Shown: piece by piece, positions 13,656-61,195 of the stretch | How positions within the stretch are numbered: position 1 is the first letter of the stretch | Layout: each line of letters starts with the position of its first letter | Assembly (NCBI GenBank): GCA_048405595.1 | Contig: DBFJOT010000010.1 | Coordinates: 7,578 to 71,577, forward strand | Origin: Candidatus Onthovivens sp. | GTDB taxonomy: Bacteria; Bacillota_I; Bacilli_A; RFN20; CAG-826 | Length of the DNA stretch: 64,000 nt | Direction of reading: 5' to 3' | Notes under the pieces: generated by a model | Seen by the model: the letters and a program-made list of their open reading frames with translations, nothing else | Databases searched by the model: none | What the model was told of the DNA's origin: nothing | Position numbers and translations under genes: made by a program

Positions 13656-13679
13656 TTATTACTTTTTATCGTTTTTTAA

Positions 13680-14023
13680 GCATGACAAAAAGATTGTTTT
13701 TAGTACTTTTTAAATTATTACTATTTATAGGTGTAGATTTCCCGTCCATTGGACTAGTGAGCCCCTAGAGAAATTCATATTAAAATTCTTTCGGGGCCCG
13801 GCCAAGAAGACGGGCAGGTTCTACATGAAAGTTTCTTAAGCTTCCAACCTGAAGAAAAGGAAATTAATTTAGCTGTACTACTACAAATAGTGTAATGAGA
13901 ATATCAATGTTAACACGAGAAGCTTCTCGATTTCCTCATACAAGTACTTGATTTCACTATTGCCTCGTACTCGCAAAATTCCTTTCTCACTAACACAAAA
14001 GGAGGAAAAGAAATTTTTTTCAA
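13680..14023. repeat. Copy A of a structured intergenic element (unknown ncRNA or MITE-like repeat); homologous to 37173-37556
   Basis: Ends with GCATGACAAAAAG (13680-13692) and TCACTAACACAAAAGG (13987-14002) + 15 nt + TTTCAA (14018-14023), in the inverse orientation to copy B. Internal GC-rich helix CCCGTC (13741-13746) / GACGGG (13809-13814). Helix CAGGTT (13815-13820) / AACCTG (13846-13851). Several perfect short palindromes (CGAGAAGCTTCTCG, CAAGTACTTG). All frames are full of stops. Confidence 0.55.
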
Positions 14024-23371: not shown

Positions 23372-23787
23372 GGTTATCTCCAATCTATTATCTATTTTAA
23401 TATATCTAATATTTCTATTATACCTAATATTTACTTATAGTTATTAATACTTATATTTTTTACTTAATTCTTGTTATTACCTTATATTAGTAATTTTATA
23501 ATTAATACTTAACGCTTTAGATGCATTCTAGTAAAAATTGGTTACTTTATATTTTTACCAATATTTATATATTTATTATTGTGAAAAGTTTCTATAACAA
23601 TAATAAAATAGTATCGATGACATCAATAAAATATCGTGAAAGTTTTTATTAATGTAATTAATAATTATTTAATTAAACAACTTGTTTATATACTAGAGAT
23701 AGTATGATATAATATTATCAAGTCAAGGAGTTAAAAATATGTTTAATGCTTTGGCTGGGTTGCTCTTAGAAATCAAAAAAATTGTAT

Positions 23788-23871
23788 ATGGAAACATTAG
23801 GATTAATTTTTTTAATCTTGGTAATGATATTGTTGTTGGTGGTTATTCTTAGAGATAAAAAAAGAGACTAG
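23788..23871 (+). CDS. Small hydrophobic peptide (27 aa), type I toxin-like
   Basis: METLGLIFLILVMILLLVVILRDKKRD. This is a single TM helix plus a charged tail. The paralogue in module 2 conserves ME.L.L....ILV. The 3' end is overlapped by a convergent promoter/terminator unit. Confidence 0.45.
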   Translation: METLGLIFLILVMILLLVVILRDKKRD

Positions 23872-23892
23872 CTAGAGCTAGTCCAACAAACC
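23857..23892 (-). ncRNA. Candidate short antisense RNA (antitoxin-like) opposite the 3' end of the peptide ORF
   Basis: Minus-strand promoter: TTGAAA (23927-23922), 17-nt spacer, TATATT (23904-23899). Then hairpin GACTAGCT/AGCTAGTC (23866-23883) followed by U7 on the minus strand. The same promoter architecture recurs in module 2. Confidence 0.35.
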
Positions 23893-23963
23893 AACTACAA
23901 TATACCATCTACATTTTAAGATTTCAAGGGGCAACCCTTTTTTTGTTAAACGGAGATCAAACT

Positions 23964-24140
23964 ATGCCAAGAACAAAAGCAGATAATAGAGCCACAATGA
24001 AATATAATAAGAAAGCATATAGACGCTTTACGTTCTATCTTAGAAATGATGACGACAAAGAAATTATTACTCTTTTAGAAAACAAAGAATCGATAGGCGC
24101 TTATATTAAATCATTGCTTTTAAACGACTTAAAAAATTAG
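23964..24140 (+). CDS. Ribbon-helix-helix (Arc/CopG-like) small DNA-binding protein
   Basis: 58 aa from ATG 23964, with GGAGA 7 nt upstream: MPRTKADNRATMKYNKKAYRRFTFYLRNDDDKEIITLLENKESIGAYIKSLLLNDLKN. The pattern is a basic N-terminal strand followed by two helices. Confidence 0.6.
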   Translation: MPRTKADNRATMKYNKKAYRRFTFYLRNDDDKEIITLLENKESIGAYIKSLLLNDLKN

Positions 24141-24269
24141 TTTTAAGAATATTTAAATTGATTGTTGCAACTCGGTTAACTTATATTCAACTATAATCAG
24201 TCAAAGGAAATAAACCAATGACAAAATTATTAACCGGGTCGTTCTTAGAAATCAAAATCAATTTAATAA

Positions 24270-24350
24270 ATGGAGTATTTAGTACTACTAATTATTATAT
24301 TAGTGACGGTTGAAAAGATTTTCGATAAAGACGAAAACAAAAAGGGCTAG
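24270..24350 (+). CDS. Small hydrophobic peptide paralogue (26 aa)
   Basis: MEYLVLLIIILVTVEKIFDKDENKKG. Same position in module 2. Convergent minus-strand promoter: TTGAAT (24404-24399), 17-nt spacer, TATATT (24381-24376). Confidence 0.35.
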   Translation: MEYLVLLIIILVTVEKIFDKDENKKG

Positions 24351-24439
24351 TACAACCAGCACAAATAAACACACTAATATATTAAATTAAACTATGTAAT
24401 TCAAGAAGCAACCCTTCTAATAAAAAAGGATATAAGAAT

Positions 24440-24664
24440 ATATCAACATCAGAAGCACAAAAGCGAGCAAGTTCAAAATACGATAAGAAAACTTACAAAA
24501 TGTATGCGGTAAAGTTGCGAATTATCGAAGATGCGGACTTAATAGAATTGCTAGAAAAAGACACATTCAAAAAAAATTTCAATAAAAGCATACAGAAAAT
24601 AAAAAAGTCCCAATGTATTACCTCAAATGACTTTGCATGGTCTTCATCATTCGTTCACAACTAG
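24440..24664 (+). pseudogene. Second RHH gene copy with ATA at the start-codon position and a 3' end fused into integrase debris
   Basis: ISTSEAQKRASSKYDKKTYKMYAVKLRIIEDADLIELLEK aligns with MPRTKADNRATMKYNKKAYRRFTFYLRNDDDKEIITLLEN. The RBS AAGGA is retained, but the aligned start codon is ATA. Confidence 0.4.
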
Positions 24665-24797
24665 AACGTTTGATAACGATTATAACGTCAAAGAAGTCTA
24701 TCAACATCTAGGTATTTTAAACACGAACACAACAATGAGATTTTATATCCTTTGCACGCAAAATAAAAAAGATAACTCCCACGATGATTTACTCTAG
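24603..24797 (+). pseudogene. Tyrosine recombinase (phage integrase) C-terminal fragment
   Basis: Open frame of only about 64 codons: ..LPQMTLHGLHHSFTTRTFDNDYNVKEVYQHLGILNTNTTMRFYILC.. This matches the HxLRH...LGH...Y catalytic tail, but with R-to-H and H-to-I substitutions and no N-terminal part. Confidence 0.6.
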
Positions 24798-24953
24798 AAC
24801 ATAGTGTAAAAACTTTGTGGGAATTACCTGGAATTAGTGTCTATTTGTGTGAGTTGTGAGGTGTTAGAAAATACGATAAAATGCGTATTTTTGCCAATTA
24901 GTGTTTAATATAAACTCTTTTAATATATAACGAATATTATTAAATAAATGTTC

Positions 24954-24978
24954 AAAAAAAGATTGCCACAAGGCAATC
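24954..24978 (-). terminator. Intrinsic terminator of the zinc-ribbon gene
   Basis: Stem GATTGCC/GGCAATC (24961-24967 / 24972-24978) with a 4-nt loop. U7 on the minus strand (A-run 24954-24960). Confidence 0.75.
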
Positions 24979-24987
24979 TTAGACGCT

Positions 24988-25428
24988 CTATCTATAAAAT
25001 AAGAATAAAGCTAAAACTATTAATAAGAATAAAATTGAAATCAGAGAAATTGCAAATCCAGCAAAAGCAAACGGTCCACCTTTTTTAACATTATGCTTAG
25101 TGTGTTTTAATCCAACGATTGAAGTAATCAATCCAGCGATACTAAAAGCAAATCCAAATGCAGCAAAAATCTCTATTCTAACAAATACAAATGAGTCAAA
25201 TAAAACTGCAAATAAAGAGATTATAAAAGATAGCCAAGAAGCCATTGAGGTTCTATTGGTCTTTGTCTTTTTAACTTTATTCTTTTTTATCTCTTTAATA
25301 TCGAGCATTGTTGTAAAAGAAGTTGTTTCTTTACGTTGATCTGCTCCACAATAAGGACAAAATGAATGTCTATCTGGTATTTCTCTTCCGCATTTTCTAC
25401 AAAACATACAGTGACAAAATTTTACCAT
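24988..25428 (-). CDS. Zinc-ribbon membrane protein
   Basis: N-terminal CRKCGREIPDRHSFCPYCG zinc ribbon followed by 3-4 TM helices. The start is uncertain: ATG 25428, ATG 25407, or the TTG 25464 used by the ORF track. Confidence 0.6.
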   Translation of the reverse strand: MVKFCHCMFCRKCGREIPDRHSFCPYCGADQRKETTSFTTMLDIKEIKKNKVKKTKTNRTSMASWLSFIISLFAVLFDSFVFVRIEIFAAFGFAFSIAGLITSIVGLKHTKHNVKKGGPFAFAGFAISLISILFLLIVLALFLFYR

Positions 25429-36590: not shown

Positions 36591-37118
36591 TCAAAGTTTC
36601 AATAAATCAAAATAATAACAATTTAACGTTACAGTTTTATTTTTAAACTTTAAAAATGACTCTTCGTTTCTAACAAATATTCCACCATTTTTAATAATCA
36701 CTTTATTGCTTCCTATATTGTCAACGTTAGCACGAATTGTCATTTTGTCGTATCCAATTTCTTTTAAATAATGTAAAAAAGTGTTCAAAGCCTCACTCAT
36801 TATCCCTTGATTCCAATATTTTCTTGATAAAACATAACCTATTTCTAACTCATCTCCACGAACAAGATCAATGCAACCAATAACTTCATCATTGCCTTTG
36901 ATGGTAATGCCAAATCTTGTAATATTTGGCTCTAATTCTTCATCCTCTTTTATCCAACCCGTTAATAAACTTTTTGTAAATTCTATATTCTCATGAACAT
37001 TCCACGTTAAATATTTCGTGACTTCTTCATCGGTTGCGTAATTAGAAAATATAGCTTCAGCATCACTAAGTTTTAATCTTCTTAATATCAGTCTATTTGT
37101 TTCAATTATTTCAGGCAT
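36591..37118 (-). CDS. GNAT N-acetyltransferase (RimJ/RimL-like)
   Basis: 175 aa. TNRLILRRLKLSDAEAIF start and WNQGIMSEAL acetyl-CoA motif. Extended -10 TGATATAAT at 37145-37153 (minus strand). Confidence 0.8.
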   Translation of the reverse strand: MPEIIETNRLILRRLKLSDAEAIFSNYATDEEVTKYLTWNVHENIEFTKSLLTGWIKEDEELEPNITRFGITIKGNDEVIGCIDLVRGDELEIGYVLSRKYWNQGIMSEALNTFLHYLKEIGYDKMTIRANVDNIGSNKVIIKNGGIFVRNEESFLKFKNKTVTLNCYYFDLLKL

Positions 37119-37172
37119 ATTTTACCTCTCCACTATACAAATTTATTATATCAAAAAAATATTTTAGAAAAT

Positions 37173-37556
37173 TTGAAAAAATTTTAAATCACACCTTTTG
37201 TGTTAAGTGAAGAACACTAGTTCTAGTCATGTTAAGTTGGATATAAAATTGCAATTGCGAGAGCACTAGTAGTAACTGATGCGCATTGATTAATTAAAGT
37301 GAATCTAGCTCTATAAAACTTCTTATTCGTAAAGACTTAAACATGATTAGAAAATAATTTTTCCAGGAATTAATTGAGTTAGCCGTAATCATTAATCTCC
37401 TGCCCACCCTATGGCTTGACTTTCCCTACATCGAATCTCCATTAATTAAAAGTGGTTGAATTGTGATTAGGGATTGTTTATGCGCCCTCTAGGGTGGGAA
37501 ACCTATGCTTAAATTAAGCGAAAAAATATTTTCCGCTTTTACTCTTTTTGTCATGC
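37173..37556. repeat. Copy B of the structured intergenic element (unknown ncRNA or MITE-like repeat)
   Basis: TTGAAA (37173-37178), 17-nt spacer, TTTTGTGTTAAGTGA (37196-37210) at one end. CTTTTTGTCATGC (37544-37556) at the other end. Helix CCCACCCTA (37403-37411) / TAGGGTGGG (37490-37498). Helix CAGGAATTAAT (37364-37374) / ATTAATcTCCTG (37391-37402). Plus-strand hairpin AAGCG/CGCTT (37516-37538) followed by a T-tract. Not coding in any frame. Confidence 0.55.
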
Positions 37557-37612
37557 CTTATAAATTTAATAGCTATGGCCATGTTTATATAAATATGAAT
37601 TAAACTACCTAT

Positions 37613-37649
37613 TTTTAAAAATGGCCCGTAGAAGTATATCTACGTGGCC
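37613..37649 (-). terminator. Intrinsic terminator of the chorismate mutase operon
   Basis: Stem 37623-37632 / 37639-37649 (GGCCCGTAGA / TCTACGtGGCC, one bulge). On the minus strand AUUUUUAAAA follows. Confidence 0.7.
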
Positions 37650-37660
37650 TCTAGAGCATT

Positions 37661-37945
37661 TTAGTGTTTTTTAGACTCGCTAATGAGCTTATTTTGCATA
37701 TCTTTACTCGCTTTTAGAAAGCCTAACAATACATCTTCATAATATTTTTTGTACTCTTCGTTTTTGACTTTAGAAAGATTTTTTTCTAGCATTTTAGACT
37801 CTCTTGAAGCATCTAAAACAGGATAATCATTTTCCAATTTAAAGGATGTAACTTCTTTTACAACATCCATTCTTTCTTCAAATAGTTCAATAATTTTTGA
37901 ATCAATCTCATCGATTCTTTCTCTGCATTCTTCAAGTTTATTCAT
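37661..37945 (-). CDS. Stand-alone AroQ-class chorismate mutase
   Basis: 94 aa. LEECRERIDEIDSKIIELFEERMDVVKEV..K......PVLDASRE is the CM_2 (AroQ) helix pattern. Confidence 0.85.
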   Translation of the reverse strand: MNKLEECRERIDEIDSKIIELFEERMDVVKEVTSFKLENDYPVLDASRESKMLEKNLSKVKNEEYKKYYEDVLLGFLKASKDMQNKLISESKKH

Positions 37946-60525: not shown

Positions 60526-60571
60526 TTGAAATTTTAGCCTCCTCCAACTTTTGTGTTAGTGAAGGAGGCTA
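60526..60571. repeat. Partial copy C: only the TTGAAA-N17-TTTTGTGTTAGTGAAGG end-module of the 13.7-kb / 37.3-kb element
   Basis: TTGAAA (60526-60531), 17-nt spacer, TTTTGTGTTAGTGAAGG (60549-60565). Here the motif is embedded in a 9-bp hairpin TAGCCTCCT (60535-60543) / AGGAGGCTA (60563-60571). Confidence 0.5.
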
Positions 60572-60622
60572 AATTAAGGGTAAGGTAAGATTTATGCCTA
60601 AAGCCCATTGTTCTTTGAAATA

Positions 60623-61195
60623 TTAGCCAAGTAAATCTTTATAAGCTGTATCAAGATAATTTAAGGCTAAATCAATAATTTCGCCTAACACTTTTACAGT
60701 ACGATGATAATCATTAGGTAATTCTAATGAGTGTGGCAAATCTTCATAGATTGTGAGAAAAGGATAAATAAACTGTTTCTTAATCAATGAAGTTATATCG
60801 ATATATTGGTCTTGTTTACTCGTCACAACAAAATCAGTTTGCTTAATAAAAGGTAATGTTTCATTAATTGGAGTTAAACAAATGAACCTAGCTCTAACTA
60901 AAGAAAAATGTTCTCTAACTTTAGAAGCCACTACAGTTCCTACGCTTTTTCCTATCAAAATAATCTCGCCATATTTTGACCAATCGATATCGCTTAATCT
61001 TTCATAAGCGATATCGACACTAGATTTTATTTTTTCTTGAAAATCTTCGATTACATCGATATTTCGAGGTAAATCATATTTTAAATAAATTGAATCACCA
61101 TCGATATATTTATCTAAGAAATAAAGCAAACTTCTATCGCAAGAATATTTAATTCCAGGAAAGAATATTTTTAATGTGTTCGAATTTCCAATCAT
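60623..61195 (-). CDS. Small alpha/beta-hydrolase-fold protein, last gene of the pot operon
   Basis: 190 aa. Nucleophile elbow GKSVG. C-terminal DLPHSLE (Asp/His). Lies 2 nt downstream of potD. Confidence 0.55.
   Translation of the reverse strand: MIGNSNTLKIFFPGIKYSCDRSLLYFLDKYIDGDSIYLKYDLPRNIDVIEDFQEKIKSSVDIAYERLSDIDWSKYGEIILIGKSVGTVVASKVREHFSLVRARFICLTPINETLPFIKQTDFVVTSKQDQYIDITSLIKKQFIYPFLTIYEDLPHSLELPNDYHRTVKVLGEIIDLALNYLDTAYKDLLG

Follow-up and report, generated by a model that had tools for sequence, protein, structure and literature searches.

Few bacterial RNAs longer than 300 nt with a conserved structure are known, and most of these have proved to be ribozymes, protein-binding scaffolds or large assemblies. 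Sets of paralogous small RNAs of 100-130 nt that share a promoter or operator and have known regulators include Qrr1-5 (sigma-54/LuxO), RsmX/Y/Z (GacA box) and LhrC1-5. At ~190 nt, the 6S RNA forms one rod interrupted by a central bubble, and Bacillus has two paralogues, 6S-1 and 6S-2. Among the orphan noncoding RNAs, the raiA motif has a length of ~200 nt, and ROOL, OLE and GOLLD have lengths of 580-800 nt (Rfam; PMC10861870, PMC12286853).

The element described here is located at 37173-37556 (+) of the window, which is the whole 64-kb stretch of DNA that was analysed, and its predicted RNA is ~345 nt long. This occurrence is called copy B, and a paralogue at 13672-14023 (-), in reverse complement orientation, is called copy A. 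As with Qrr1-5, RsmX/Y/Z and LhrC1-5, a strict common upstream module and a short, conserved motif in single-stranded form are combined with otherwise diverged sequence, but the RNA is ~3x longer and the module fits no consensus known to us. The presence of two diverged stand-alone paralogues in Bacilli recalls 6S-1 and 6S-2, whereas the predicted multi-domain junction fold and the lack of a match to the Rfam 6S models set the element apart from them. It shares with MITE-like Firmicutes repeats such as RUP and BOX the form of a short, ORF-free, hairpin-capable intergenic element with conserved ends, but differs in having no terminal inverted repeats or target duplications (by inspection), a low copy number, a diverged interior and orthologous loci that are kept. 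The element also resembles the raiA motif, ROOL, OLE, GOLLD and HEARO, orphan RNAs that came from comparative genomics (Rfam; PMC10861870, PMC12286853) and are likewise long and intergenic with several helices, have conserved nucleotides at junctions while the helices vary, and occur in low-GC Gram-positive gut or rumen lineages. Unlike these, the element is known from a few related uncultured species, and one genome contains it as two diverged paralogues. Its length falls between that of raiA and those of ROOL, OLE and GOLLD, and searches with the covariance models of all these RNAs gave no match, even at E <= 5-10.

The preferred reading, given a probability of roughly 0.58 from sequence comparison and structure modelling, is that copy B is a stand-alone plus-strand gene for a structured noncoding RNA of ~345 nt that matches no described RNA family. 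The element is probably a new and narrowly distributed structured noncoding RNA. If so, an RNA of more than 300 nt from an uncultured gut lineage with two old paralogues would be a worthwhile structural and functional target; if the element is a decaying repeat, the finding would be ordinary. The rival explanations (a decaying repeat, a minus-strand UTR, a pure DNA regulatory region and a micro-protein) each fit fewer of the observations.

Two copies and their surroundings

Copy B is found in a gap of 542 bp (37119-37660), given as 520 bp in the sequence-only reading, between the gene for a GNAT acetyltransferase (36591-37118, minus strand) and the chorismate mutase gene (37661-37945, minus strand). 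The gap had been described as free of ORFs, and the largest ORF in it has at most 37 aa. Every gene neighbouring copy B is on the minus strand. The right-hand boundary is the intrinsic terminator hairpin of the chorismate mutase gene at ~37623-37649 (-). Outside the element on the left, the extended -10 of the GNAT gene, TGATATAAT, was located by direct sequence reading at 37145-37153 (-). This extended -10 is perfect and 20 nt from the 5' module of the element, which places the two units back to back, and they could affect each other. On re-reading, the earlier coordinates of TTGAAA, TTTTGT, TGATATAAT, the 3' hairpin, CTTTTTGTCATGC and the chorismate mutase terminator were all correct.

The G+C content of the window is 29.6%, and its proteins have their best similarity to uncultured 'Bacilli bacterium' MAGs. 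In a Pfam search, 18 flanking or larger ORFs of the window proved to be ordinary chromosomal metabolic or transport genes or had no family match, and no transposase, integrase, reverse transcriptase or Cas/TnpB-type gene was found among them.

The element body is present in exactly two copies in the 64-kb window (nhmmer). An endonuclease I gene and a glycosyltransferase gene converge on copy A from either side; no protein-gene promoter is therefore needed there, which counts for an RNA gene. The claim that the element at 13672-14023 recurs at 37173-37556 was borne out by nhmmer and MAFFT, in which exact blocks follow each other in the same order with diverged sequence between them. The block order common to the two copies is AAATTTGAAAAAA-N-TTT-N8-CCTTTTGTGTTA, CCTGCCC, GGGAAAYCTA and TCTTTTTGTCATGC. 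Copy B had also been called a full copy. This is true of the 5' module, the CCTG-CCC junction, GGGAAAYCTA and the 3' block, but a 5' domain at ~37211-37352 has no clear counterpart in copy A. As judged from the alignments, only the 3' domain and the end blocks are truly common to copies A and B.

The 3' block, CTTTTTGTCATGC, is located at 37544-37556 (+) and is identical in copy A (13680-13692). Its description as conserved holds for the two paralogues of this genome but not for their orthologues, which have TTTTTTAG(Y)AT(AT)GC in its place. Contigs L051 (copy A type) and L023 (copy B type), which are from one sample and represent a sister species, have 3' block variants that resemble each other. 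This sharing across both paralogues genome by genome suggests concerted evolution or a co-evolving partner.

The 5' module and its three loci

The 5' module of copy B is located at 37173-37205 (+) and was delimited by exact matches and spacing. It consists of TTGAAA (37173-37178), a variable spacer of 17 nt and then TTTTGTGTTA, so that TTGAAA and TTTTGT (37196-37201) are 17 nt apart. The spacing of TTGAAA-N17-TTTTGTGT is identical in all five sequences that contain it (copy A, copy B, a third locus in the window, and the orthologous contigs L054 and L056). The last base of the spacer is always C, and the rest is free to vary. Three exact module matches are present in the window, compared with 0.03 expected by chance, and the module is found there only ahead of noncoding loci. 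A pair of constant half-sites, held at one distance by a spacer of free sequence, points to a DNA site that is read by a protein, and the module looks like a separate promoter-like module or operator with -35/-10 geometry.

A SigA promoter has a -35 like TTGACA, a spacer of 16-18 bp and a -10 of the form TAnnnT with an A at -11. The TTGAAA and the 17-bp spacer of the module fit this, but the -10 position is TTTTGT in 5/5 sequences, with no A at -11. This hexamer had already been described as not sigma-70-like. The module was not reported in a scan of the window for the sigma-70 consensus. To our knowledge, TTTTGT fits no known sigma-factor consensus. The consensuses of CodY, Rex, TnrA, LytTR, ComK, ECF sigma factors, sigma-54 and TcdR-type factors were compared with the module by eye, and none fits. 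The Bacteroidetes -33/-7 promoter came closest, with two TTTG motifs 25 nt apart, but the Shine-Dalgarno sites of the host and its proteins, which are like those of Bacilli MAGs, speak against it. An RNA hairpin with UUUUGUGU in its loop was also considered; it is strong only in copy A and the third locus and at the level of shuffled sequence in copy B, L054 and L056, and was dropped as a general feature.

The module without a usable sigma-70 -10, and its presence ahead of an unrelated short locus, argue for an alternative sigma factor or another regulator. The module would serve as the promoter or operator for this factor, and a single regulon would include both copies and the third locus. 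Transcription of copy B would start just past TTGAAA-N17-TTTTGTGT, at ~37207-37210 (+), where a conserved purine-rich GTGA follows TTTTGT at a distance of 6-9 nt. The module may matter in itself, as a handle for finding its factor and the remaining regulon.

The third copy of the module is located at 60526-60556 (+), where TTGAAA-N17-TTTTGTGTTAGTGA is followed by an unrelated short hairpin-forming sequence. In the stretch at 60526-60620 (+), which lacks the body found in copies A and B, the module precedes a strong hairpin, AGCCTCCTCC...GAAGGAGGCT, and ~50 nt separate the hairpin from the stop codon of the minus-strand gene 60623-61195. From its sequence, this locus could be a short RNA gene or the terminator of gene 60623-61195 read in reverse. 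The string TTGTTCTTTGAAAT at ~60608-60621 resembles the boxA of Gram-positive rRNA operons, probably by chance.

A wider reading would make copies A and B the founders of a new class of RNAs of 300-350 nt in uncultured gut Bacilli, with the third locus as an unrelated short RNA, an undescribed promoter type TTGAAA-N17-TTTTGTGT, a regulon of RNAs only and GGGAAAYCUAYRCC as the working site. This is put forward as a tentative possibility.

The module is also what gives weight to a reading in which the element is a DNA-level regulatory region only, with protein-binding sites in the module and end blocks that act on the neighbouring genes or on chromosome structure and with no functional RNA. The best-conserved feature of the element is a bipartite motif of DNA type with a free spacer, and the 3' block resembles the second half-site of the module. 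There would, however, be nothing to regulate around copy A, which lies between convergent gene ends, and the ~300 bp of the interior are conserved between orthologues with compensatory pair changes. This reading is considered improbable.

Predicted fold, strand and 3' end

The stand-alone RNA gene preferred here would have a 5' domain that varies between lineages and, after it, a conserved 3' domain, in which two hairpins, P_x and P_y, and a closing helix are predicted to form a junction. Both copies gave more stable folds than shuffled sequence. The fold z-score of copy B was -2.94 on the plus strand versus -2.26 on the minus strand, and that of copy A was -3.57 on the sense strand of the element versus -2.20 on the opposite strand.

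In the minimum-free-energy fold, the copy B-specific 5' domain (37211-37352, +) is made up of a small hairpin at 37211-37224 and a long-range helix, AGUCAUGUU (37225-37233) with AACAUGAUU (37340-37348), around three small hairpins. In L054, a partial orthologue, its 5' arm is retained. The 5' domain of copy A and of its distant orthologue L056 is closed by the strand starting right after the module, with GUGAGAA/UUCUCAU in the former and AUGAAAGG/CCUUUCAU in the latter, which amounts to two double-sided changes. UGUAGA and UCUACA can pair in copy A and L051, as a pseudoknot or an outer helix, and copy B lacks an equivalent.

The closing helix of the 3' domain, A/U-rich with 13 bp, pairs 37350-37363 with 37520-37533 (+) in the minimum-free-energy fold and is an alternative to the terminator hairpin; the analogous helix of copy A is CUAUUUGUAG/CUAUAAAUAG. 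P_x is located at 37364-37402 (+), CAGGAAUUAAU...AUUAAUCUCCUG, with arms at 37364-37381 and 37386-37402, and it abuts P_y without a linker at the conserved CCUG-CCC. P_y is a long hairpin at 37403-37498 (+) with the outer helix CCCACCCUA/UAGGGUGGG (37403-37411/37490-37498). Copy A has CCCGUC/GACGGG at the matching place, giving the changes GC to AU and UA to CG, and L051 has 11 continuous base pairs there (read by eye). In a covariance-model alignment with copy A and L051, the pair changes in P_x are AU to GC, UA to UG to AU, GC to UA, and AU to UA. The junction and tail motif, GGGAAACCUAUGC, follows at 37496-37512 (+) with the consensus GGGRAAYCUAYRCC and is present in copy A, copy B, L051, L023 and L025. 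CCUG-CCC...GGGAAAYCUAYRCC is the only internal sequence kept in both paralogues and the orthologues and is the likely functional site, either as a protein docking site or as a pairing seed. No mRNA targets complementary to the tail motif were found within the window.

A covariance model trained on copy A and L051 only, the alignment of which is biased towards pairing, found copy B at 37351-37519 (+) with 19.3 bits and E = 0.015 and aligned P_x and outer P_y. Copies A and B differ in this alignment by changes on both sides of a pair, with pairing kept, in three positions of P_x and two of P_y. The covariation with copy A that had been claimed for the helices 37364-37374/37391-37402 and 37403-37411/37490-37498 is thus seen as five both-sided changes, and both helices are in the minimum-free-energy fold. 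Between copy A and L051, RNAalifold gave 5 pairs changed on both sides. When the fold of copy A was imposed on the L051 alignment, 85.7% of the cells paired, with 4 both-sided changes and many one-sided changes to G.U, and the P_y and long-range helices held best. In the shuffle control for this comparison, 27/500 shuffles equalled it, with only 2-3 informative sequences, and the support for pairing between copy A and L051 is suggestive and no more. With two full copies and a few, mostly partial orthologues, the covariation cannot be statistically significant. The four within-species SNPs in copy B are all structure-neutral on the plus strand, where 37252 C>T replaces a C-G pair by U.G, 37429 falls in a bulge, and 37482 and 37489 are in internal loops.

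On the minus strand, the conserved helices would contain A.C mismatches in place of their G.U pairs, which favours the plus strand. A plus-strand reading had been suggested from the layout of the locus, and copy B is probably read in this direction as judged from the folding energies, the G.U pairs, the neutral SNPs and a covarying hairpin at the 3' end. This terminator-like hairpin is formed by AAGCG (37516-37520) and CGCTT (37534-37538) and is followed by a U-rich tract up to 37551 (+). In copy B, it is followed by UUUUACUCUUUUU and is weak (-4.8 kcal/mol), under the threshold of the terminator scanner. L023 (AAGUGUU/AGCACUU) and L025 (CAGAUGGU/ACCAUUUCUG) have a hairpin of changed sequence at the same place, again with a U-rich stretch after it, and in this the hairpin behaves as a terminator would. 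The hairpin and T-rich run pointed out in the sequence-only reading are in this sense terminator-like and covary in the copy B orthologues. The transcript would end at the hairpin and U tract at ~37551 or else at the terminator of the convergent chorismate mutase gene. Copy A itself lacks a clear terminator.

A functional transcript from the minus strand was weighed on the same data. It would be the 3' UTR or read-through of the chorismate mutase gene or a small RNA, and the reversed module would be a terminator that insulates the GNAT gene. All neighbouring genes are on the minus strand, the reversed module reads as a hairpin followed by TTTTTTCAAA, and a weak promoter-like ATGACA-N18-AATATT is located at 37554-37525 (-), but this site is kept neither in copy A nor in the orthologues. 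At the third locus, the reversed module is the sole terminator candidate for gene 60623-61195, and the minus strand folds better (z = -4.61). A terminator, however, would not require two invariant blocks with constant spacing. The third locus has kept TTGAAA but not the U-run; copy B, L054 and L056 have a weak reverse hairpin or none; and the G.U pairs and folding energies favour the plus strand. A minus-strand origin of the function is regarded as quite unlikely.

Relatives, distribution and known RNA classes

Copy B was found in 16 contigs of the same species at 99.5-100% identity, with a polymorphism density in the element (9.7 per kb) similar to that in the flanking genes (5.7-9.2 per kb). 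In one of the contigs of this species, L008 (NCBI JARCCX010008535.1), the element contains a tandem duplication of 90 bp that corresponds to 37376-37465 of the window. It takes in the 3' half of P_x and P_y up to its middle, and could be a true length variant or an error of assembly.

Related species were reached via the flanking genes, whose orthologues have 73-88% protein identity. Among the copy B orthologues, L023/L024 and L025 contain the 3' end, and L054/L055 contain the 5' end. The 3' 290 nt of copy A are present in L051, and a complete gap of 468 bp is present in L056, where the identity of the endonuclease is only 73%. The element in L056 was missed by nhmmer and the covariance model, though the module, locus, length and a similar order of hairpins are kept. 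In relatives at 70-76% identity, the copy B locus has another gene order and the element is absent. Copy A and L051 are ~70% identical with long invariant blocks while the adjacent noncoding flank is unalignable, and from this difference the element is concluded to be under purifying selection and vertically inherited.

The contigs of the close relatives (L023, L024, L025, L029 and L051-L055) all end inside the element or at its edge, at both loci and with several assemblers, and the species of the window assembles straight through it. These breaks could stem from extra repeat copies, from segments that vary between strains or from AT-rich hairpins being poorly covered. They are among the points in favour of a decayed mobile or repeated element, MITE-like or a cis-mobilisable remnant, with the related direct repeats CTTTTGTG/CTTTTTGTC at its ends and with hairpins that are functionless leftovers. 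The end blocks of copies A and B are identical with a diverged interior, both ends are alike, a solitary module is present at 60526, and one assembly has the internal 90-bp duplication. When the ends were inspected by eye, however, no convincing terminal inverted repeats or target-site duplications were seen, and the ends are look-alikes only as an A-run and a T-run. The element is present as two diverged copies in 64 kb, with no further body copy in the ~115 kb of relatives' loci scanned, and both loci are vertically inherited across species in which the flanking proteins are only 73-88% identical. The helices show compensatory substitutions, the polymorphisms are structure-neutral, no transposase or integrase is nearby, and distant blastn searches against phage and plasmid collections gave no match for the element. 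A decayed mobile element is considered unlikely.

Wider pattern searches gave chance matches. A scan of 596 Gb of genomes with GGGAAAYCTA...CTTTTTGTCATG gave 4 matches, all by chance, and a scan of JGI metagenome contigs with the 5' module pattern gave 19 loci, all by chance and without the element body. Viral contigs scanned with three patterns gave chance matches or coding sequence only, and the motif strings were not found in 200 supplementary files of PMC8040213. The 3' block is a poor search pattern because it is not conserved in orthologues. Either the family is narrow, confined to a few related uncultured species, or the search blocks chosen were too variable.

The window was searched with Rfam 15 (4227 models) at gathering thresholds, and only four tRNAs passed. 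When both copies, the third locus and the L056 gap were searched with Rfam at high sensitivity, the best scores were 12-29 bits, compared with thresholds of 45-229 bits. ARAGORN found 4 tRNAs elsewhere in the window and no tmRNA or tRNA-like structure at either copy. RNase P, SRP, 6S, tmRNA, T-box and riboswitches were rejected, as the look-alikes GAGGAAAUC, CAGGUUGGAAGC and GGGUGG are not conserved between the copies and no Rfam match was obtained. A retron, CRISPR or TnpB/IscB guide RNA was rejected as well, with no such gene among the 18 ORFs run against Pfam.

A protein-coding gene or pseudogene was rejected, as no reading frame is kept and the lengths of the indels between orthologues are not divisible by three. 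Neither copy has a stop-free segment with a Pfam match, and tblastn with the proteins that occupy the position in more distant relatives found no trace in the element. One or more very small proteins, such as a type I toxin, could be encoded by a minus-strand MTKR ORF at the 3' block or by short plus-strand ORFs behind the purine-rich leader. ATGACAAAAAG (MTKR) and TTTCCC (FP) are common to copies A and B, one codon apart in register, and the peptides of copy A and L023 are hydrophobic. The start codon or frame of the MTKR ORF is lost in L051, L025 and L056, however, the plus-strand ORFs are not conserved, the peptides are unrelated between the conserved blocks, and the conserved nucleotide blocks are in different frames in copy A and L051. 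A spurious ORF of 77 aa in copy A had no relatives among 1.84 billion protein representatives. A small protein is considered highly improbable. The description of copy B as an independent unit is supported. No degraded gene, phage or plasmid sequence or small-protein gene was evident.

Elsewhere in the window, 1.6 kb at 23383-24988 without long ORFs contains two tandem look-alike cassettes. Each has a short hydrophobic ORF (starts at ~23740 and ~24219, with the common string CTTAGAAATCAAAA) followed by a basic ORF of ~55-60 aa (starts at ~23965 and ~24440), and by their sequence, these could be a toxin/antitoxin-like or bacteriocin-like pair.
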